DNA of 64,000 nt from a virus: IMG/VR virus record IMGVR_UViG_3300009347_000008; one strand, 5' to 3'. Positions 2,564-52,566 of this stretch are shown here, piece by piece. Positions within the stretch are counted from its first letter, which is position 1; every line of letters begins with the position of its first letter. Both the position numbers and the translations under genes were made by a program. The notes beneath the pieces were generated by a model. The model saw nothing but the letters and a program-made list of their open reading frames with translations. It was not told the origin of the DNA and did no database searches.

Positions 2564-3838
2564 TTACTCAGCAGCCTTAACGGTTGCCAGCGAACGCTCA
2601 GCGTAGTCGATACCAGCCTTAGCGATTTCAGTACCAACCTTACCAGCGAAGGTGAACACCTTGATCGCGCTGTTACCGGTAGCGGTGATAGCACGTTGAG
2701 CAATACGGCTGTCTTCAACCACAGCAGCCTTGCCTTCACCATCAGGAGCGGTTTCAGCAATCTTCTTGGCAGCTTCGATAGCCTTCTTCATGCCGTTCTC
2801 GAAAGCAGCCACAGCAGCCTTTTGACCCAGATTGTATTGAACAATCTTTTCTGCGGCCTTCAGAGCGGTAGCAACTTCAGCCTTCGACAGAGCTTCGATT
2901 TCGGGCTTGTCAGTGAAGGGCAGGTTTTCCTTGATGGTAATACCGAAGTCCTTCAGAGCTTCCCAAGCGCCACGGGCCGTGTCACCAACCGACTTGTCAG
3001 CGAACTTAACATCGATACGAGGACCGATGACTTCACCGCCAACCGACTTGAATGCAGCAGCTTCCTTGTACACGTCCATAGCAGCCTTCGACTTGTCGAG
3101 GAAGCCTTGGTCGTCAGCAGCACCTTGGTTGATGGAGATGGAGCTAGCCATAGCACCCAGACCAACGATGATCTTCTGCGTGTCGCCAGCGACCTTCTTC
3201 AGTTCTTGTTCGGTAGAACCCAGAACCTTCAGAACACCAGCCTTGTCACCCTTGCCAGCGGGCTTGGTGATACCAGAAGCCTTCACGTTGCCGGTGGTTT
3301 CACCCTTGGCAGCAGCAGCCTTCTTTTCCAGCGCGTTGATACGAGCCAGCAGCTTACGGTTACCGTCAAACAGCTTACCGAAGAAGTTCTTCACGAAGTC
3401 GACGATCTTCTGGAAAGCGTTAACCACGGCAGCCCAGATCTTCTTGACGGTTTCCTTGATGTCTTCGATAGCCAGTTGGGTAGCACGCTTACGGCCAGTC
3501 TTGCCACCGAACGATTCGAGAGCAGGATAGGAGCTACGTTGCACGCCCAGGCGAGAGTAGATCGACTCAACAGCCACTTCAGCGATTTCAGCAGCCACGG
3601 GGTCCAGACCACCTTCAGCTTCAGCCGCTTCAGCGGTATCAGCAATGCGTTCCAGGGTGTCAGCATCGGCAGATGCTTGATCGATCTCAGCACCGCCAGC
3701 TTCCACGTCAGCGGAAATGTCAGTAGCTTCCACCAGATCGGCTTCTGCGGACTCAGCACCGGTTTCGTCAATAGCCAGTTCGGCTTCTTGGGTTTCGTCT
3801 TCCATAGCGGCCACTAGGCCCTTAGCGAAAATAGACAT
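2564..3838 (-). CDS. Ala/Glu-rich acidic protein (424 aa), encoded in a conspicuously GC-rich segment; paralogue of the 3973..5619 product
   Basis: Roughly 55% GC versus a ~38% background. It shares the segment VNAFQKIVDFVKNFFGKL with IVNDVWQAIVRMFKALSDWIKDFFFNK in the next gene. The long plus-strand ORFs 2696..3817 and 2907..3530 are antisense artefacts of this GC-rich gene. Confidence 0.7.
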   Translation of the reverse strand: MSIFAKGLVAAMEDETQEAELAIDETGAESAEADLVEATDISADVEAGGAEIDQASADADTLERIADTAEAAEAEGGLDPVAAEIAEVAVESIYSRLGVQRSSYPALESFGGKTGRKRATQLAIEDIKETVKKIWAAVVNAFQKIVDFVKNFFGKLFDGNRKLLARINALEKKAAAAKGETTGNVKASGITKPAGKGDKAGVLKVLGSTEQELKKVAGDTQKIIVGLGAMASSISINQGAADDQGFLDKSKAAMDVYKEAAAFKSVGGEVIGPRIDVKFADKSVGDTARGAWEALKDFGITIKENLPFTDKPEIEALSKAEVATALKAAEKIVQYNLGQKAAVAAFENGMKKAIEAAKKIAETAPDGEGKAAVVEDSRIAQRAITATGNSAIKVFTFAGKVGTEIAKAGIDYAERSLATVKAAE

Positions 3839-8321: not shown

Positions 8322-9525
8322 AATGGACGCTATAAACGATACTAATCTAGTTAAAGTGTCTGTGAAGGACGTTAACCAATTAGGTTTTGGTAATCACTCT
8401 TTGTTCAATATAGATACCGGTGTAAGTCAAGACGCTTTCTTTGATCTCGCAAGATCAGAAGGTAACGAAATGACTAAGAACGTCTACGGTATTAACCATA
8501 GACAAACACCGTTAGCTATCCCACAAAATAAAGATCACTACGGGCTAACATTCTTCACAAGACCTCAATTGAATTTCAGAGCATCGAATCTGAGACAAAA
8601 CAGATTATTTACCAAACTTCTCACTACCGAGCCTCTATCTTATTTTCGTCTGATCAGAAATACTCTTGATCCACGACTAGATAGCGCTTATGGTACTGGT
8701 GTTTCAGGTATCGATAGGATTGAATGTCCCTTGGTTGATCCTCAGCAAGCTTTCATACCTATCTTAACAAATAATCTACTTAATATATCAGGTTGGCCTG
8801 ATGTCAGAGTCGATACCTTTACTTCAAAATCTGGACCTTATAAAGAAGAATGGTCAATAGTAGACGGACTAGCAGTCAACTATTCGGCATACGATTTAAC
8901 AGCTACCTTTAGAAACAGTAAAGGTGACCCAATTACAATGATGATGTATATTTGGGAACACTATATGTCAAACGTTTTTGAAGGTGTATTAAGTCCTTAT
9001 CCAGACTTCTTAATCAATAATGAAATTGATTACAATACTAGAATTTATAGACTGGTATTGGATGCTACAAAACGTTATGTAGTTCGTATCGCTGCTTGTG
9101 GTGCAAGCTTTCCTTATGCTGCTCCTTATGCCTCAGTATTCGACTTCGATGCTACTAAACCTTATCATGATGGTAACAATGAAATTCAAATCCCATTCAA
9201 GTGTATGGGTGCTATCTATGATGATGATATTTTGATTAGAGCATTCAATCAAGTGGTTGGTTATTTTAATTCTGGGATGAAGGTCAATCGTATTCACGAT
9301 GTTCCTGGTCCATCCATGATTAAGATTCCTTTTGAGTATCTGGATATTTTTAACAATCGCGGTTATCCTAGAATTAATCCAAAAACTAGAGAACTAGAGT
9401 GGTATGTAAACGCAGATTACTACGCTGCTAAGATTGATGCATACAAAGAGTTTGATTCTAAATTGGATAATGTATTAGGATTCAATCCAAAAGAAAATGC
9501 CGAATTTGGTGAAGAAGGTGAATAA
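8322..9525 (+). CDS. Hypothetical protein (~401 aa). Start moved to ATG 8322 (MDAINDTNL...), preceded by AAGGAAA; the track start 8254 overlaps the divergent upstream gene.
   Basis: ORF plus RBS-like sequence; divergent from 7164..8288. Confidence 0.55.
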
Positions 9526-26481: not shown

Positions 26482-28166
26482 TAACTAAAGATACTGACAC
26501 GTCTATTATATGTTGTAGCTTATATAATAGGTTTAACGTGTTTACAAGAAAAGAACTTTACGTACCTTTTTCTGGAAGAAGATATATTATCACTAATACT
26601 GGTAAGATATTAGATTCTGAGAAGAAAGAAATTCCTGTTGAAATAATTGATAGGTCTATTTTTGTGGAAATTGATTGGTTACTTGGTAGGAGAAAATATC
26701 TCTTGTCTGTAATAGTAATGTTCACTTATGGATCTCTTAAAGTACCAGATCATCTACTAGACTTAGTAGAACCTCTTTACGTTGATGGTGATTTTAGAAA
26801 TTTAACACCCCAGAATCTTATCTATAGATTCAAAACCCCACTAGAAGTAGAAAACTATCCTGGTTTTTTCCTTATACCCTTTTATGTTAATTACGCTTTA
26901 AGTAAGAATGGCTCATTAATTAATATAGAAACTGGTAAGGAAAAACAATGGTCAGTAACATCAACTGAAAACAATAAAAAGAATCAAAAAGGTGGCTATT
27001 ACTTTAGCCGTGTACTTAATGATTTCGGTTTCAGTAAGTGTTTATTTCTACACAGAGCATTATGTTTAGTTTTCAAAGAGTACGATAACAAAGTCCAGTC
27101 ACTTGTGGTCAATCATAAGGATGGTAATCCATCTAATAACCACTTAGATAATATCGAATGGTCTACTTATAAAGAAAATAATAATCACGCTATTGCCATG
27201 GGTCTTAGATCAGATAATAAACCTATCTTATCGAAGAACATTAAAACTGGTGAGATCATGAAATTCTCCAGTATTAATGAATGTGGAAGGTATTACAATG
27301 CTCCTAGAGCAGGTTTTATCCAACATAGGTTGAAGAAATCTGGCAATAAAATATATTCGGATTATTTATTATTTAAGTATGACGACGGGACAGAGTGGCC
27401 ATCGATAGACCTTAATAAAGTCGAAATTATCCGAGGCGGCAGAAGTGACTTAATCAAAGCTAGAAATGTCTTTACTGGTGATGTTATTTTATTCTTAGGT
27501 GCTGAAAAAGGCTCTCACTTAACAGGTGTTAAAAAAGCTACTATTTTAAATCACGTAAAAAAAGGACACTTGATACCTTGTAAAGGTTGGAATTTTAAAT
27601 GGGACAACGACGAGACTCCGTGGCCTAACCACACACATCGTCATTTGAAAGTCTATGAAAAATTCCCAATCTTTCCTCCCACTGGTGCAATTATTTTTGA
27701 TACGGAATTAAACGAGGAGCTTTTCTTTGAGAGTGTAGCTTTAGCGTGTAATTTCTTAAATATCACTAAACATGTTTTTAGTGATTACGCTAAATCAAAA
27801 ACTTTATTAAAGAAAAGATATTCGCTTACGTATTTTCATCTTGTGAAAAGTCTAGGTCTCCCTACAGAGTAATCTGTAGTAAAAAACTATGTGAATTGAC
27901 TGGAACAAGCTTAGAGCCTCATACACTCCCTACTCCAGTAATGAGAGTAGTACAGTAAAAGAGATGAGGATTGTTTAACCAGCAGCCAAGCTTCCTGACC
28001 AACGACGTGAGTCGCCGTCAGGGTGAAGGTTCAGAGACTACATACCACAAGTGTGGTTAGCGCATAGCCCCATTATTCAATGGGTGAAGATATAGTCCGA
28101 TCTATAAGGAAACCTTATAGCGGGTGCCATAGCGTACCGGCTTAGTCTAACGAACTAAGTGGACAG
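26482..28166 (+). mobile_element. Group I intron (~1.7 kb) in the DNA polymerase gene, carrying an HNH endonuclease ORF; boundaries approximate
   Basis: Canonical P7 elements: R = GGTTCAGAGACTACA (28026-28040) and S = GAAGATATAGTCC (28088-28100), with the P7 pairing GACTA/TAGTC. A P9 hairpin TATAAGG-aaa-CCTTATA follows. The intron ends with G28166, directly before an in-frame exon whose first residues are KLDVSASYPN (polymerase motif A). Confidence 0.6.
26538..27872 (+). CDS. Intron-encoded HNH homing endonuclease (444 aa; GTG start)
   Basis: HNH core VVNHKDGNPSNNHLDNIEWSTYKENNNHA; located inside the group I intron. Confidence 0.7.
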   Translation: MFTRKELYVPFSGRRYIITNTGKILDSEKKEIPVEIIDRSIFVEIDWLLGRRKYLLSVIVMFTYGSLKVPDHLLDLVEPLYVDGDFRNLTPQNLIYRFKTPLEVENYPGFFLIPFYVNYALSKNGSLINIETGKEKQWSVTSTENNKKNQKGGYYFSRVLNDFGFSKCLFLHRALCLVFKEYDNKVQSLVVNHKDGNPSNNHLDNIEWSTYKENNNHAIAMGLRSDNKPILSKNIKTGEIMKFSSINECGRYYNAPRAGFIQHRLKKSGNKIYSDYLLFKYDDGTEWPSIDLNKVEIIRGGRSDLIKARNVFTGDVILFLGAEKGSHLTGVKKATILNHVKKGHLIPCKGWNFKWDNDETPWPNHTHRHLKVYEKFPIFPPTGAIIFDTELNEELFFESVALACNFLNITKHVFSDYAKSKTLLKKRYSLTYFHLVKSLGLPTE

Positions 28167-44370: not shown

Positions 44371-45162
44371 TTATCCAAATATACGTTTGTTTCTTTCGTC
44401 GATACTGCTATTAGTAAATGACTCTGGCTGAATTTCAATAACGTACTTACTGAATTCATCACCTTCTAAATGTACTTTCTTTCGCTTGATATAGATACCA
44501 TTCTTGAACTTGGTATTAATATTATCCCAATCGTATTTGTGTACTTCTTTGATAATACGGATACGTTCAACAAAAGTTTTATTATCAATATCTTTACCGA
44601 TACCTAAATCACTGCTGATAGCAATGATACATTTCTTGCTATTCTCTCTTTCTGCCCAAAGTAGAGCGTTGCCTGTTTCAGTTCTGTTAGGTACTCTGAA
44701 GATAGTAACATCAAAAGCTGGATAGACTCCACGATCATATAGTTCATCGATGTCCCTAGACTCTGCTAGTTTCAAAGAGAAGTGGGTGGCAGCAGAACTA
44801 GTAACAGCGCTTACTAGTTTTTGTTTCTTACCGCCATATTCAAGGGGAGCTTTCTCAGTTCCATGAATGACCATCATGATCTCTGAAACGCCCACATGTG
44901 CGTACTTAGCTTTAAAGGTGTTAAGCAGATAAGTAGCAGTTTGTTGCATTAGATCAAAGCATCCAAAATCGAATGGAGTTTCAAACACTTTGGAGAAACG
45001 TCGAATATTCTTGAAAGAAATCCTTACAAGAAGGACACTATTGGTAGGATTGAATGCTTGATCTTTCTCCTGATCTTGGTAGTAAGACATTCGTTCATAT
45101 AGACACATTCTACTTTTTTCTTTAGTAGTTAGTGGTTGGCCGGTCATAGGCTTTTCTCTCAT
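44371..45162 (-). CDS. Thg1-like protein (tRNA-His guanylyltransferase / 3'-5' nucleotidyltransferase family), ~263 aa from the internal Met (MREKPMTGQP...)
   Basis: LLVRISFKNIRRFSK resembles VVVRLDGRNFHRF of human THG1L (recalled). HVGVSEIMMVI is a weaker resemblance to the downstream GQSDEYSFVF block. An AAGGTGA RBS precedes ATG 45162. Confidence 0.5.
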   Translation of the reverse strand: MREKPMTGQPLTTKEKSRMCLYERMSYYQDQEKDQAFNPTNSVLLVRISFKNIRRFSKVFETPFDFGCFDLMQQTATYLLNTFKAKYAHVGVSEIMMVIHGTEKAPLEYGGKKQKLVSAVTSSAATHFSLKLAESRDIDELYDRGVYPAFDVTIFRVPNRTETGNALLWAERENSKKCIIAISSDLGIGKDIDNKTFVERIRIIKEVHKYDWDNINTKFKNGIYIKRKKVHLEGDEFSKYVIEIQPESFTNSSIDERNKRIFG

Positions 45163-45249
45163 CACTGTCACCTTTAAGTTACTGTATAATAACGGTATTA
45201 TACACATAATGTTTTTTGTTTATTTTATTTATCATTAGTACGGCATAAA

Positions 45250-46125: not shown

Positions 46126-46305
46126 TCCTCACCGAAGTGAATGCAGTCTAGGAACCACCCTAAACCATGCTCTTTAGAGTCCAGTTTAGGTTCCCCCGTT
46201 GCCTGAAGCTGGTGGGTTAATCCGGTCAGTATGTAATTAGTAAATAATAGTATTACCTCTATAACTTAATGTTAAAGAGATGAATACTAGATAGTGTATA
46301 AGCGT

Positions 46306-46352
46306 CGCGTTAGGGGAGTTAACCCCTAACGATCCCGGCCTTCACGGGATTG
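46306..46352. terminator. Two tandem hairpins (CGTTAGGGG-agttaa-CCCCTAACG and ATCCCG-gccttca-CGGGAT) downstream of the GC-rich gene at 46367..46876
   Basis: Perfect inverted repeats on the 3' side of the minus-strand gene. Confidence 0.55.
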
Positions 46353-46366
46353 GACCTAGCGCACTT

Positions 46367-46876
46367 TTACTTGCGAGGAGCAGCCTTGGTAGCAGCGCGA
46401 GGAGTTGCCTTCTTCGCAGCAGCCACGGCTTGACCTTGTTCCTTGAATGCAGTCAGCACCTTCTCAGCATTGGCTTGCAGCCATTCGAGAGGAACACCAT
46501 GTTGCAGTTCACGAGAAACAGGAGCACCCAGCAGAACCATCAACGGGATGTAATCGCGGGTTTCAGCACCGTAAGCACGAGCCAGTGCAATGTTCTTTGC
46601 GCTCTCGCGAGCAGCAGCGATCACACGGTTCGCATTACGAATGGCTTCGAACTGAGCACGCAGTTCAGCATCGGCAACACTATTGATTGCCATGATTTCC
46701 TTGACAGCAGCGCGAGTTGCTTCCTTACGGTTAGCAGCCAGTTCTTCTTCCATGATAGCTTGGATCTCAGCATCATGAATCACGGGCAGACCGAATGCAG
46801 CCAGAGCTTCCTTTTCAGCAGTGGAAGCAGCCAGATCAGTCAGGGCATGGATGTTAACAGCGATGAGCTTGTTCAC
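46367..46876 (-). CDS. Ala-rich protein with a basic C-terminal tail (169 aa), strongly GC-rich; candidate abundant DNA-binding/virion protein
   Basis: Composition (A/E/K-rich, C-terminal AAAKKATPRAATKAAPRK) and GC content far above background. Confidence 0.6.
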   Translation of the reverse strand: MNKLIAVNIHALTDLAASTAEKEALAAFGLPVIHDAEIQAIMEEELAANRKEATRAAVKEIMAINSVADAELRAQFEAIRNANRVIAAARESAKNIALARAYGAETRDYIPLMVLLGAPVSRELQHGVPLEWLQANAEKVLTAFKEQGQAVAAAKKATPRAATKAAPRK

Positions 46877-47073: not shown

Positions 47074-47739
47074 TCATTTGGTGTATCCGAAATGATCGAT
47101 CATTTGTTTCACAGTGACTCCATCACTGTAACCACATTTAACACTGTTGTATTGGGCAGCCACTTTATCTCTAATGTGGGCACCCTTACCATCAGATCTC
47201 ACGTAATAAAGATTCACGCCATCACAGAAAGAACCTACGATCTTACCAGGATGGTCTTGCAACGAGTTAGCTAGTTTGGCAACTTTGTAAACCAATTGGT
47301 CATATGTACCATTGTTTTCAATGATGACATCGAATTCATCTTTCGGGATATTGAAAGATGTAATTGGTTCCAAAGGAACACCTCGACCACTAGCATCAAC
47401 CCAAACCTTTAGATCATAGAGATGTTTAGATGCATTAAATTCTTCAAGATCACGCATCCCTACATAGATTTGGTGTTCCTGTAGAATCTCTCTAGACAGC
47501 CTTGCCTTGTCGGGAGTATTGTAGTTCCTGATAAGCTCATAGAGATAAGGTCTATGGAGACTTCTCTTCTCGTAACATTCGGCAAAGCTACTATATCCAG
47601 TATGTGCCATAATGACATCTTCTAGGACTTTCATAGCATATGCTGATGATGAACTAGCTTTATAATTGTTGAAATCACAAAGCAGATCAGCTACGGAATC
47701 TTTACCATGACGGCCATGTCCACATATAAGTAACTTCAT
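47074..47739 (-). CDS. Deoxynucleoside monophosphate kinase-like P-loop kinase (~221 aa from MKLLICGHG...)
   Basis: MKLLICGHGRHGKDSVADLL resembles the N-terminus of T4 gene 1 dNMP kinase, MKLIFLSGVKRSGKDTTADFI (recalled from memory). Confidence 0.5.
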   Translation of the reverse strand: MKLLICGHGRHGKDSVADLLCDFNNYKASSSSAYAMKVLEDVIMAHTGYSSFAECYEKRSLHRPYLYELIRNYNTPDKARLSREILQEHQIYVGMRDLEEFNASKHLYDLKVWVDASGRGVPLEPITSFNIPKDEFDVIIENNGTYDQLVYKVAKLANSLQDHPGKIVGSFCDGVNLYYVRSDGKGAHIRDKVAAQYNSVKCGYSDGVTVKQMIDHFGYTK

Positions 47740-47932
47740 GTGAAAACTTTCATTGCTAAAGATCAATTTATTCGAAATCACGGATCTTAGAAAAAACAAT
47801 ATCGATAGTCATTTTTCAGTCTCTTTGAAAAAATGATGGCATAAAGAGTGTTGGACTACCGCTACTCATCATTAGGTCTCTGGAGGGTGGAGGGAGGAGA
47901 GAGACCTAATAACTTTCACAATAGCCCAAACA

Positions 47933-48474
47933 TGGTGCCCCGAGCCGGAGTCGAACCGGCACGCTACTTAATTCGCAGGAGATTTTCTTACCACTATAGT
48001 TTTCACTACCAAACAACTTACCATACGTTAAAGGATCTTAGTTTGTTTGTGGTCTGGACTATGCCTTGATCATGCCCACGTCTGGGTTTAGATCGGAACC
48101 GTCTAGTCTCTACACTTTCCTAATCACTGATTAGGCTTAGCTCGGCGTTGTCATGTTAATATCCAGAGGGTTACTTCTAGTGTAACATAGGTAGCTGGCA
48201 CTACACACCCTATACCGGGATTATCCTATTAATTTAGAGTTCGCCGAATTTGATTCCATTCACCTAGTAACTCCGACTGACATATAGGTCTTTCTCCTAT
48301 ATTTAATGCGCTTATCGGATGGCGTCGATACAGATAACTGTTGTCGTTACTATTTTACCGTCTTTCGATTGACTGTTACGCCTATAATAGACTACCAATC
48401 ATTTTTTCGGTGGTGCTCAATATAGCTATCGCTATCTTAAAGTCTCCGGTGTCTACCAATTTCACCATCGGGGC
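47933..48474 (-). tRNA. tRNA-Leu(UAA): tRNA-Leu(UAA) split by a group I intron. Exon 1 is 48440..48474, the intron is 47987..48439, and exon 2 is 47933..47986 (CCA encoded).
   Basis: Exon 1 reads GCCCCGA-TG-GTG-AAATTGGTAGA-CAC-C-GGAGA-CUU. Exon 2 reads AAAA-TCTCC-(17-nt variable arm)-GCCGG-TTCGACT-CCGGC-TCGGGGC-A-CCA. The acceptor stem (GCCCCGA/TCGGGGC) and anticodon stem (GGAGA/TCTCC) pair perfectly. The anticodon is U34|A35A36, with the intron inserted exactly between U34 and A35. Confidence 0.8.
47987..48439 (-). ncRNA. ORF-less group I intron (453 nt) inside tRNA-Leu(UAA)
   Basis: Minus-strand P7 elements: R-like GTGTAGAGACTAGACGG (rc of 48100-48116) and S-like AAGGCATAGTCC (rc of 48053-48064), pairing GACTA/TAGTC. 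P8 is the hairpin CCCA-gacg-TGGG. P9 is the 8-bp stem CAAACAAC/GTTGTTTG. The 5' splice site follows U34 and the last intron nucleotide is G. No ORF of 60 aa or more lies inside. Confidence 0.75.
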
Positions 48475-50299: not shown

Positions 50300-50374
50300 T
50301 GGTGGGAAAAGCGGGATTCGAACCCACGCCTTAACGATTATGAGTCGTCAGTACTACCGCTATACGATCTTCCC
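50300..50374 (-). tRNA. tRNA-Met(CAU): tRNA-Met or tRNA-Ile2 (anticodon CAU), CCA encoded
   Basis: GGGAAGA acceptor stem pairs with TTTTCCC; anticodon arm GACGA-CTCATAA-TCGTT; T arm GTGGG-TTCGAAT-CCCGC. The G1-C72 pair argues for an elongator type. Confidence 0.75.
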
Positions 50375-50383
50375 TTATTATTC

Positions 50384-50800
50384 TTATTGACTAGACATGT
50401 AACCCCACTGTCCGTTAAGAGCAGTAGCTGTTAATTTGAATTCATGTAGAGCAACTTCTGATGGAACATTATCACCAGTTAGAAACACCTCTATAAACAC
50501 TTTAGCGTGTTTATAATCACCTAATAAACGAGCTAAAAGATTGATACGTTTTTTATCCGATTCACTAACTGAATGGATATTAAATACGCCAAGACTTTTC
50601 ATGAAGAGTGTTATCTTCGAGTGGTAAGATTTATTGTAGTCCTTACCAATACTAATAATACTCTTACCATCTTCAGAAATACCTTCACTTACAGAGGTAT
50701 CTTTAAAGATATTGATATAAACAATTGGTTGTTTATTAGCAACGTTACGAAGTGAAAAATCACGTAATTCGTAATTGTTAGATTCATCAAAAAGTTTCAT
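50384..50800 (-). CDS. Hypothetical protein (138 aa)
   Basis: ORF between two tRNA genes. Confidence 0.5.
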   Translation of the reverse strand: MKLFDESNNYELRDFSLRNVANKQPIVYINIFKDTSVSEGISEDGKSIISIGKDYNKSYHSKITLFMKSLGVFNIHSVSESDKKRINLLARLLGDYKHAKVFIEVFLTGDNVPSEVALHEFKLTATALNGQWGYMSSQ

Positions 50801-50846
50801 TTCAAACTACTTTCTTTTCGATTAAGAAGAAAAAAAAATCCTCTTA

Positions 50847-50920
50847 GGGATAGCCACTATGGATCGAACCCAGAACCACAGGGGTCACATCCCTGCGCTC
50901 TACCATTGAACTAAGATGGA
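50847..50920 (-). tRNA. tRNA-His(GUG): tRNA-His(GUG)-like gene with a non-canonical acceptor region; possible pseudo-tRNA or a gene needing 5' repair
   Basis: D arm TA-GTTC-AATGGTA-GAGC and anticodon arm CAGGG-ATGTGAC-CCCTG are perfect. The T arm CTGGG-TTCGATC-CATAG has one G-A mismatch. The 3' strand reads TGGCTATCCC with no CCA. The 5' strand TCCATCT cannot pair with it. Confidence 0.45.
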
Positions 50921-50926
50921 ATGTAT

Positions 50927-51316
50927 TTATTCAACAATGACTCGTCCATGAGTCAAAGTAGTAACCTTATCTAATTTCTTCTCTTGCCAAGTTTCCATCC
51001 AAGGCCCACGGAAACTAATAGCCCAAGTTACTTCCTGCGCTACGATCTTGTGGAAACAATCTCTTGGTGTGAATTTAGGCTTAAGGCTAGGACGCCAAGG
51101 TAGTGGTGTTCTGTCATCAGCAAAGTACTCCATGACTCTACCCTTGATCCACCAAGTCCATGCATTGAAAGCATGGCTGTGAAATGCTTCACGACTACCT
51201 TTAGAGAATCTCAATATCACAATTGAGAAACCTAACTTCCATTCAATCAACCAATACCCAGTAACTCCTGAGTTTGGTCCACCATCGTGACTCTTTTTAA
51301 AGAGTTCGATTTTCAT
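50927..51316 (-). CDS. Hypothetical protein (129 aa)
   Basis: ORF. Confidence 0.5.
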   Translation of the reverse strand: MKIELFKKSHDGGPNSGVTGYWLIEWKLGFSIVILRFSKGSREAFHSHAFNAWTWWIKGRVMEYFADDRTPLPWRPSLKPKFTPRDCFHKIVAQEVTWAISFRGPWMETWQEKKLDKVTTLTHGRVIVE

Positions 51317-51368: not shown

Positions 51369-51956
51369 TCACCAGTATTTCATTACTGTATTTCTGGAGA
51401 TTTTTAATTGATCTGCGATCTTGTAAACACTTAAACCTTGGCTCCTGAGAGCTTTGATTTGATTAATAATATCTTGACTCTTTGTTCGACCTACAGGAAA
51501 AGCTTCTGGATTTGTTTCTATTTGATATTTAGCTTTACATGAATTAGAACAGAAGATTAGTCCACTACCATTATTAGTATAATGTTTGTAGAACTTTTCA
51601 CCCATACTTCTTTCAGTTAAAGTAAAATCTTTACCACAATATGGACAAGCTAAATCAAATTTCTGCTGTACATTATTGATGTAATGTAAGCGTTGCTTCT
51701 CTCGATTTTGTTCAGGTGTTAGGATTTGAAGATTGTTAGGATCATCATTGGTTTTATTATTGTCAATGTGGTCTACTTCTTCTTGGTCAGTTAAGAAGCG
51801 ACCAAGCTTAACCGCCATTAAATATCTAGCCAATGTAGTTCCTGTTAGAGAACCATCAAATCTTTTTAATGTGACAGCTCTCCTGCCTTCATTATTCACA
51901 TAAACATAACCTGCCTGATACTCAGTATTAAAAGGATATTCTAAATCTATTTTCAT
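51369..51956 (-). CDS. Free-standing HNH endonuclease (195 aa) embedded in the tRNA cluster
   Basis: VDHIDNNKTNDDPNNLQILTPEQN (HNH_3-type) followed by a Cys cluster (CPYCG...CSNSC) and a C-terminal HTH-like segment. Confidence 0.65.
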   Translation of the reverse strand: MKIDLEYPFNTEYQAGYVYVNNEGRRAVTLKRFDGSLTGTTLARYLMAVKLGRFLTDQEEVDHIDNNKTNDDPNNLQILTPEQNREKQRLHYINNVQQKFDLACPYCGKDFTLTERSMGEKFYKHYTNNGSGLIFCSNSCKAKYQIETNPEAFPVGRTKSQDIINQIKALRSQGLSVYKIADQLKISRNTVMKYW

Positions 51957-52015: not shown

Positions 52016-52090
52016 TGGTGGGCGATCCAAGAATCGAACTTGGAACTAAAACTTAGAAGGTTCTTGTTATTTCCATTTAACTAATCGCCC
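52016..52090 (-). tRNA. tRNA-Arg(UCU): tRNA-Arg(UCU), CCA encoded
   Basis: Acceptor GGGCGAT/ATCGCCC; D stem GTTA/TAAC; anticodon arm AGAAC-CTTCTAA-GTTTT; T arm CCAAG-TTCGATT-CTTGG. Confidence 0.8.
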
Positions 52091-52176
52091 TTGTCCTTTA
52101 CTCTAATCCAACTGAGTTACAGACGCTTTATCTTTAAGCTGTTGCTACTATTCGCTGAGCTATGGGCAGTTATGTT

Positions 52177-52478: not shown

Positions 52479-52566
52479 TGGCGGAAGAAGTGAGATTCGA
52501 ACTCACGGATAGTCACCCATCGCCGGTTTTCAAGACCGGTCCATTAAACCACTCTGGCACTCTTCC
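52479..52566 (-). tRNA. tRNA-Ser(UGA): tRNA-Ser(UGA) with a long variable arm, CCA encoded
   Basis: Acceptor GGAAGAG/TTCTTCC; anticodon arm CCGGT-CTTGAAA-ACCGG; long variable arm; T arm GTGAG-TTCGAAT-CTCAC; 88 nt. Confidence 0.8.

Follow-up and report, generated by a model that had tools for sequence, protein, structure and literature searches.

An unpaired acceptor stem in a phage tRNA-His-like element is very probably the scar of a deletion between tRNA-Asn and tRNA-His genes

How does a phage come to carry a histidine tRNA gene whose two acceptor strands cannot pair? The question is raised by a 64,000-nucleotide stretch of the IMG/VR virus record IMGVR_UViG_3300009347_000008, referred to here, at its full length, as the window. 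On its minus strand, running from 50920 to 50847, lies an element with the body of a tRNA-His(GUG) and a 5′ end that does not match it. An earlier note, made from the letters of the sequence alone, offered three possibilities: a pseudo-tRNA, a tRNA whose 5′ end is matured by unusual editing with the help of a nearby Thg1-like gene, or a regulatory tRNA-like decoy. Comparison with a syntenic relative speaks strongly for the first of these: the element is very probably a hybrid tRNA pseudogene, formed when part of a phage tRNA cluster was deleted and the 5′ acceptor strand of a tRNA-Asn(GUU) gene came to precede the body of a tRNA-His(GUG) gene. It would then be an ordinary broken gene, of an already known kind, and no new form of tRNA editing.

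Read 5′ to 3′ on the minus strand, the element comprises a 5′ acceptor strand UCCAUCU (50914..50920), the two nucleotides UA, a D arm GUUC-AAUGGUA-GAGC (50911-50897), a single G, an anticodon arm CAGGG-AUGUGAC-CCCUG (50895-50879, anticodon GUG at 50888-50886), a variable loop UGGUU (50878-50874), a T arm CUGGG-UUCGAUC-CAUAG (50873-50857), a 3′ acceptor strand UGGCUAU (50856-50850), C73 (50849) and a final CC (50848-50847). The Rfam alignment displays all three arms, which the earlier note had described as well formed. This holds for the D arm, for the anticodon arm with its 7-nucleotide (nt) loop and for the T loop, which is of the canonical UUCGAUC type; the T stem, however, has only four of its five pairs, one of them G·U, and a G52·A62 mismatch that the note did not mention. 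The acceptor strands are indeed unpaired, as the note had seen: UCCAUCU and UGGCUAU match only at U5·G68 and C6-G67, that is, at two of seven positions, leaving positions 1-4 and 7 open where a canonical tRNA has seven base pairs (1-7 with 66-72). The tRNA finders agree with that hand fold, since neither produced a paired acceptor stem. ARAGORN did not call the element in a search that called the tRNA-Met, tRNA-Arg and tRNA-Ser genes of the window, and the Rfam tRNA model gave a local match only (50857-50913, model positions 8-63), at 28.8 bits against a gathering score of 29 and with an E-value of 0.0076 in 7 kb, or 0.07 across the whole window. Thermodynamic folds of 74 nt and 111 nt yielded no cloverleaf and were no more stable than shuffled sequences (z = -0.25 and -1.09).

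The relative that explains this structure is L003, a locus on the 259-kb contig JAVWTF010000001.1 (filed as an Aurantimicrobium metagenome-assembled genome), which is syntenic with the window and encodes a Thg1-like protein 86% identical to the window's. Two genes serve as synteny anchors: upstream, a gene of 129 amino acids (aa) belonging to PHROG 4786 (50927..51316, minus strand), whose stop codon lies 6 nt before the element, and downstream, a 138-aa gene of no family (50384..50800, minus strand). Their DNA is 96.8% identical to L003 2316-2705 and 96.3% identical to the 139-aa gene of L003, respectively, and the gap between them measures 500 nt in L003 versus 126 in the window. Within this gap L003 holds five tRNA-type genes. 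ARAGORN calls tRNA-Asn(GUU) at 2712-2787, tRNA-Ser(GCU) at 2797-2885, tRNA-Cys(GCA) at 2903-2986 and tRNA-His(GUG) at 3088-3161; the Asn and His genes give full-length Rfam matches of 66.0 and 64.4 bits.

The two parts of the element are homologous to the first and last of these genes. At the upstream flank L003 reads ...GAATAGATACAT followed by the start of tRNA-Asn, TCCATCT-TAGCTCAGTCGGTAGAGC; the window at the same place reads ...GAATAAATACAT-TCCATCT-TAGTTCAATGGTAGAGCGCAGGG..., and GAATAAATACAT-TCCATCTTAG is identical at 21 of 22 positions to L003 2700-2721, which spans the stop-codon flank of the 129-aa gene and the first 10 nt of tRNA-Asn. From position 8 on, the element follows tRNA-His instead: its 3′ 70 nt match L003 3095-3164 at 63 positions, the intact L003 gene being GTGACCA-TAGCTCAATGGTAGAGC-G-CAGGGATGTGGCCCCTG-TGGTT-CTGGGTTCGATCCCCAG-TGGTCAC-C-CCT. 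On this degree of identity to an intact tRNA-His of the same locus, a chance resemblance can be ruled out. The His body thus delimited, from position 8 to the 3′ end, occupies 50847..50913, as the local Rfam match also indicates. The switch falls inside a heptamer, TAGCTCA (tRNA positions 8-14), that the two L003 genes share (TCCATCT-TAGCTCA-GTCGGTAGAGC in Asn, GTGACCA-TAGCTCA-ATGGTAGAGC in His) and that corresponds to TAGTTCA at 50907..50913 of the window, minus strand; beyond it the window carries the His-type AATGG. The same picture emerges from a multiple alignment, where the window runs with the Asn row as far as TCCATCTTAG and changes there to the His row, and from a global alignment of window and L003 from the 129-aa to the 138/139-aa gene, in which the window has a single large gap, 376 nt long, at the heptamer. 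The flanking blocks of that alignment (0-403 and 488-895) are 96.8% and 96.3% identical, and the His body between them matches at 74 of 83 positions. The sequence across the junction is TCCATCTTAGTTCAATGG. The element therefore has the composition of a hybrid tRNA gene, with parts homologous to two neighboring tRNA genes of a relative, a single deletion between them and a junction in shared sequence. The acceptor stem is unpaired because its 5′ strand is that of tRNA-Asn, orphaned by the deletion of its partner AGAUGGA, and its 3′ strand that of tRNA-His, whose own partner was deleted too. For the same reason the element has no G-1: C73, one half of the G-1·C73 identity pair of tRNA-His, is present, but the 5′ side belongs to tRNA-Asn and no His 5′ strand remains.

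These data suggest the following history. In the ancestor, the gap between the 129-aa gene and the 138-aa gene would have held a series of tRNA genes with Asn(GUU) first and His(GUG) last, as in L003. The first and last genes are nearly identical in their D-arm sequences (TAGCTCA, positions 8-14), and recombination, or the repair of a double-strand break, between these two places would then have removed about 376 bp, comprising the rest of Asn, Ser(GCT), Cys, the fourth tRNA-like gene and the His 5′ acceptor strand. The His body would thereby have been fused, in register, to the 5′ acceptor strand of Asn. With acceptor strands from different tRNAs no stem could form, and a transcript, if made, would be no substrate for RNase P, for CCA addition or for histidyl-tRNA synthetase (HisRS). 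The gene is most likely dead. We infer a deletion in the window lineage rather than an insertion in L003 on grounds of parsimony, since L003 has two complete, high-scoring genes where the window has two halves that do not match. The route was probably D-arm homology, whether by microhomology or by homologous recombination, and the HNH homing-endonuclease open reading frame (ORF) some 450 nt upstream of the element (51369-51956, minus strand) possibly provoked the break.

The fourth tRNA-like gene of L003 (2990-3066, between Cys and His) is itself odd. Its acceptor stem is perfectly paired (GCATCCA/TGGATGC) and it includes a T arm and CCA, but it shows no recognizable D arm and its anticodon loop is atypical; neither ARAGORN nor the Rfam tRNA model calls it, and a weak YrlA-like match (24.5 bits, E 0.47) lies near it.

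The closest precedent comes from phage T4: McClain and Foss are reported to have described, in Cell in 1984 (38:225), hybrid tRNA genes that arose from deletions in the T4 tRNA cluster. As there, the deletion seen here lies between two tRNA genes of one cluster, with a crossover in shared sequence and an in-register join. A further likeness is a homing endonuclease gene within or next to the cluster, here the HNH ORF and in T4 segB, which PMC2330249 places within the tRNA cluster. Unlike the T4 hybrids, the present one has its junction at positions 8-14, so that the first gene contributed only its acceptor 5′ strand and an acceptor stem is impossible; it is also known from sequence alone, in an uncultured relative of the 259-kb contig rather than in a T4-like coliphage. 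With tRNA pseudogenes of phages and organelles it shares local similarity to the tRNA model, the failure of tRNA finders, uncompensated stem substitutions, and a presence, absence and state of decay that vary among close relatives. It differs from the usual remnants in being unusually complete (His positions 8-73), its defect being a clean strand swap rather than scattered mutations. In structure, the element agrees with an inter-tRNA deletion hybrid and with neither a canonical nor an edited tRNA. It would offer a clean example of how tRNA genes are lost from phage clusters, by deletion between D-arm sequences with a homing endonuclease adjoining.

Further relatives, reached through homologues of the Thg1-like protein (n = 7) and of the 138-aa protein and through the contigs that encode them, reveal at least six states of the same intergenic site among the recovered contigs, the five-gene array of L003 being one. 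A contig from a Joint Genome Institute (JGI) metagenome (sample 3300009351) has the identical hybrid and, over 6.4 kb, shows 1-2 mismatches to the window (99.97-99.98% identity); the Asn-strand/His-body arrangement was seen only in the window genome and in this contig. L008-L013 hold an uncalled tRNA-like sequence, tRNA-Ser(GCU) and an intact tRNA-His of another allele (52.7 bits). L022 has tRNA-Ser(GCU) and a His homologue (585-658) whose anticodon has changed from GTG to ATA, so that ARAGORN labels it 'Tyr-ata'; its changes are almost all transitions and affect the D loop (GG to AG), the T loop (TTCG to TTTG) and the stems, a second, independent route by which tRNA-His was lost at this locus. 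At this site L016-L019 have nothing beyond the T arm, the 3′ strand and the CCA of L003's fourth tRNA-like gene (L016 ~770-800). In L007 and L020/L021 the site is empty except for a terminal hairpin, and the L020 junction lies in CACCC(C), a sequence common to the upstream flank and to the His 3′ end of the L008-type allele. L007 has kept its Thg1-like gene (89% identity), and no tRNA-His was found anywhere on its 9-kb contig. In L014, L015 and L023 the upstream gene is another one and His is absent. Among the recovered contigs, tRNA genes at this site, a hot spot of deletion, have been lost repeatedly, by deletion across short shared sequences or by point decay, and the hybrid of the window is one outcome of this kind. 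The repeated deletions suggest that the cluster is dispensable.

A megablast search of GenBank phages with 3 kb gave no match, and a distant blastn search with 6 kb gave scattered matches only (among those listed, mainly Burkholderia phage Band-7/lipoprotein genes) and no close relative. Exact-pattern scans found neither the T-arm/3′ strand, the end of the 129-aa gene nor the Thg1-like protein in the viral_contigs collection, and neither the His core nor the junction in metagenome_contigs, from both of which the lineage is apparently absent.

The His body of the element differs from L003 tRNA-His by C11 to U (which leaves a G·U pair), G37 to A, U69 to C, C70 to U and C72 to U, and in the T stem by C62 to A and C63 to U, giving G52·A62 and G51·U63. 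The changes concentrate in the acceptor 3′ strand and the 3′ half of the T stem, where they are uncompensated, a pattern that would fit drift after inactivation; T11 and T72 are shared with the decayed gene of L022. The 5′ strand AUAGCCA that the window's UGGCUAU would require is absent from the His-bearing relatives whose 5′ strand could be read (GUGACCA in L003 and L022, GUGGCCA in L008). The earlier note had been struck that the 3′ strand with the adjoining nucleotide, G-UGGCUAU, reads like the normal 5′ end of a bacterial tRNA-His. Literally it does, but the homologous strands are UGGUCAC in L003 and UGGUCAU in L022, and the resemblance appears to be coincidence only. The note was also correct that the element encodes no CCA, C73 being followed by CCU, while tRNA-Met, -Arg, -Ser and -Leu of the window all end in CCA. 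The intact His homologues of L003 and L008 lack it as well, both reading C73-CCT (...CAC-C-CCT), so that this feature is ancestral and no sign of decay. The intact tRNA-His genes of L003 (3087-3161) and L008 (675-751) moreover have T at -1 together with C73; unlike typical bacterial tRNA-His genes, these phage genes do not encode G-1.

Some of these observations weigh against the account of a dead deletion hybrid, or narrow what can be claimed for it. The body is well preserved, with only seven substitutions relative to L003 and with anticodon and T loop intact; therefore either the deletion is recent or some constraint persists. A transcript of the hybrid, if made, may also have a residual role. 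The Asn-first arrangement was found in one relative only, L003, so that the ancestral state comes from a single comparison and parsimony. Nor can the remnant's excess divergence from L003 relative to its flanks (7/66 versus 28/810, Fisher p = 0.012) be used as evidence of relaxed selection, because the window and L003 diverge strongly in their intact tRNA-Met and tRNA-Ser-UGA too, an indication that the tRNA clusters are mosaics of alleles.

The deletion reading has to be set against the editing proposed earlier, in which the element is a functional tRNA-His precursor whose seven 5′ nucleotides are removed and whose strand is rebuilt 3′ to 5′ by the Thg1-like protein, with UGGCUAU(C) as the template; we regard this as very unlikely. 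Editing that depends on Thg1-like proteins (TLPs) is known to replace up to the first three nucleotides; in TLP-edited tRNAs the mismatches are confined to pairs 1-3 at most, many tRNAs per genome are affected and the state is conserved. The phage shares with the amoebozoan mitochondria in which TLP editing occurs a mismatched 5′ acceptor strand in a genome that encodes a Thg1-family protein, but here five of seven positions are unpaired, one gene is affected (Met, Arg, Ser and Leu of the window have normal stems) and the mismatched state is unconserved, as the intact His of the Thg1-bearing L003 and the L007 contig make plain. The nearby gene is real: the Thg1-family ORF (44371-45207, minus strand; Pfam PF04446, E 2.2e-14) lies 5.6 kb downstream of the element on the same strand. 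Also in favor of the idea, the D arm, anticodon arm and T loop are intact, although the T stem has its G·A mismatch. TLPs do rebuild 5′-truncated tRNAs in vitro with the 3′ acceptor strand as template (PMC3701042), and PMC4820378 likewise describes 5′-end repair in vitro by bacterial and archaeal TLPs; the in vitro repair substrates, however, lack 1-2 nucleotides (PMC3701042), against the seven to be replaced here. Phage-encoded Thg1 is known sporadically, as in Bacillus phage Bc431v3 (PMC3601020), and occurs in some jumbo phages, where it has been discussed as a 5′ tRNA repair enzyme (PMC7824862). The phage protein itself speaks against such a role. In BtTLP, D30 and D75 bind two Mg2+, the metal-coordinating carboxylates are essential and D75A impairs activity (PMC3701042). 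When the phage protein is aligned to BtTLP (4KGK, 4kgk_A) by phmmer, and identically by hhalign (probability 92% for the phage family), D30 corresponds to S64 and D75 to S108, while E76 is kept as E109; VRIDG becomes VRISF, SDE becomes VSE and E12 becomes Q44. The three carboxylates D30, D75 and E76 are therefore not all present. The first aspartate is absent in all seven Thg1-like homologues and the second is present in a single one (P0006), whereas the R28 equivalent is kept, as are certain lysine and asparagine residues that do not vary within the phage family. That the protein acts as a 3′-5′ polymerase is accordingly doubtful, and the family may consist of pseudo-enzymes or have arrived at a different active-site solution. 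With serine at both positions, repair of the 5′ end from a template is unlikely. This argument stands apart from the comparative one, by which the 5′ strand is that of tRNA-Asn and was placed there by deletion, and a functional link between the Thg1-like ORF and the hybrid is not supported. We think it just as improbable that the hybrid is transcribed and its His-like body put to use, be it by salvage into a chargeable tRNA-His (the Asn strand removed, followed by 3′-5′ resynthesis) or as a decoy for a host defence that targets tRNAs; salvage, if true, would mean that a divergent Thg1-like protein is active despite missing the canonical aspartates. For annotation, this means that a comparison with relatives should precede any appeal to editing where a tRNA with an unpaired acceptor stem lies beside a gene for Thg1.

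The regulatory decoy of the earlier note fares a little worse. As a non-decoding RNA that soaks up HisRS, a modification enzyme or an anticodon nuclease of the host, or as part of a structure at the transcript end, the element could draw on its preserved anticodon arm and T loop, and the ensemble centroid fold pairs 5′ CC-UCU with a downstream AGAGG so as to enclose the body. Yet the arrangement is confined to the window genome and its near-identical contig, the locus has been freely emptied or rearranged in close relatives among the recovered contigs, and the fold energies are no better than those of shuffled sequences; moreover, the downstream AGAGGA is also present in L007, L008 and L020, which lack the Asn strand, so that the long-range pairing is coincidental. 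A long-range helix of 5′ UCC(A)UCUUAG with 3′ CUAAGAGGA was considered and rejected on the same ground, since the AGAGGA hairpin predates the fusion. Less probable still is an assembly artefact, in which two tRNA genes were merged through their similar D arms while the true genome has the full cluster. The source is metagenomic, as is that of the matching JGI contig, and short repeats are common among tRNA genes; but the shared stretch spans 7 nt, with another 8 beyond a difference of 2-3 nt, far under assembler k-mer sizes, a second, non-identical record has the same junction, and the remnant's own substitutions (T11, A62, U63, C69, U70 and U72) are absent from the intact alleles. We give hardly any credence to a split or permuted tRNA, or to a 3′ piece of a host's tRNA gene that serves integration in the manner of attP, to which a tRNA body with a genuine-looking 3′ acceptor strand and C73 but no 5′ strand might have pointed. 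The 5′ strand ATAGCCA occurs 15 times in the window and only once on the minus strand (26993-26999), 24 kb away, which rules out a split or permuted gene; no integrase was found among the 30 ORFs scanned, the neighbors being an HNH endonuclease and small ORFs; and relatives carry complete phage tRNA genes at the equivalent site. The window also resembles a large lytic phage rather than an integrating one, to judge from genes elsewhere in it for a ribonucleotide reductase, DHFR, a dCTP deaminase-like protein and a GIY-YIG endonuclease.

Within the window the hybrid stands in a row of genes that all lie on the minus strand, in the order tRNA-Ser, a 95-aa ORF, tRNA-like debris, tRNA-Arg, the HNH ORF, the 129-aa ORF, the hybrid, the 138-aa ORF, tRNA-Met, a Band-7 protein and a tRNA-Leu(UAA) split by a group I intron. 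The tRNA-Met (50300-50374), tRNA-Arg-UCU (52016-52090) and tRNA-Ser-UGA (52479-52566) called by ARAGORN give full-length Rfam matches of 54-65 bits, and the exons of tRNA-Leu align end to end with the intact tRNA-Leu of L003. Immediately past the 3′ end of the hybrid the sequence continues with UAAGAGGA and U9; a short hairpin-like CCCUAAGAGG, then A and U9 (50830..50849, minus strand), partly coincides with the 3′ end of the tRNA and might act as a weak terminator. A terminator scan did not call it because its stem is too short. The hairpin sequence is kept in relatives with or without tRNA-His (CCCCTAAGGGGATTCTTTTTTT in L003, GCCCCTAAGAGGATCTTTTTT in L007 and CCCAAGAGGATCTTTTTTT in L020).

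Directly upstream of tRNA-Arg, at 52091-52165 on the minus strand, GCGTCTG-TA-ACTC-AGTTGGATTA-GAGT resembles a 5′ acceptor strand and D arm with nothing after them. This stretch has no Rfam tRNA match even at E <= 10, only its first 26 nt match L003, and it is preceded by a fragment, GCCCATAGCTCAGCG...; both are probably further deletion remnants, and the stretch may be the fifth other tRNA gene counted in the earlier note. In the interval between the 95-aa and 129-aa genes, where the window has an intron-less tRNA-Arg(UCU) followed by the HNH endonuclease gene, group I intron-like matches are found in L003 (1880-2194, 37.9 bits) and L007 (625-1038, 30.7 bits), which suggests a turnover of introns and homing endonucleases around tRNA-Arg.

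Several peripheral findings appear more promising than the hybrid itself, namely the Ser/Ser Thg1-like family, the tRNA-His genes without an encoded G-1, a polymorphic tRNA-Leu intron and a twister-sister ribozyme. The tRNA-Leu(UAA) gene (48474-47933, minus strand) comprises exons at 48474-48440 and 47986-47933 and a 453-nt group I intron (48439-47987), which interrupts the gene and so causes ARAGORN to miss it. The intron lies in the anticodon loop after U34, with a boundary ambiguous by about one base, at the classic cyanobacterial and plastid position. Its Rfam group I match (48035-48341, 36.2 bits) is under the gathering score; the intron is present in L008 and absent in L003 (5549-5637), L007 and L016. 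A second, strong group I intron match, on the plus strand at 27826-28120 (66.5 bits, E 1e-14), starts inside the end of an ORF at 26538-27872. The window ORF at 47074-47799 (minus strand) encodes 241 aa and its syntenic counterpart in L003 (6086-7138) 350 aa, with a weak RNA-ligase match (PF09414); the window copy may be N-terminally truncated, use another start or be interrupted. Finally, a twister-sister self-cleaving ribozyme was detected at 46289-46367 (minus strand) with 41.9 bits, and in L003 at 8809-8886 with 36.6 bits, against a gathering score of 34; a match in L007 (3875-3953) falls just under that score at 30.1 bits. Its position is syntenic in L003 and L007, between small ORFs upstream of the Thg1-like gene.

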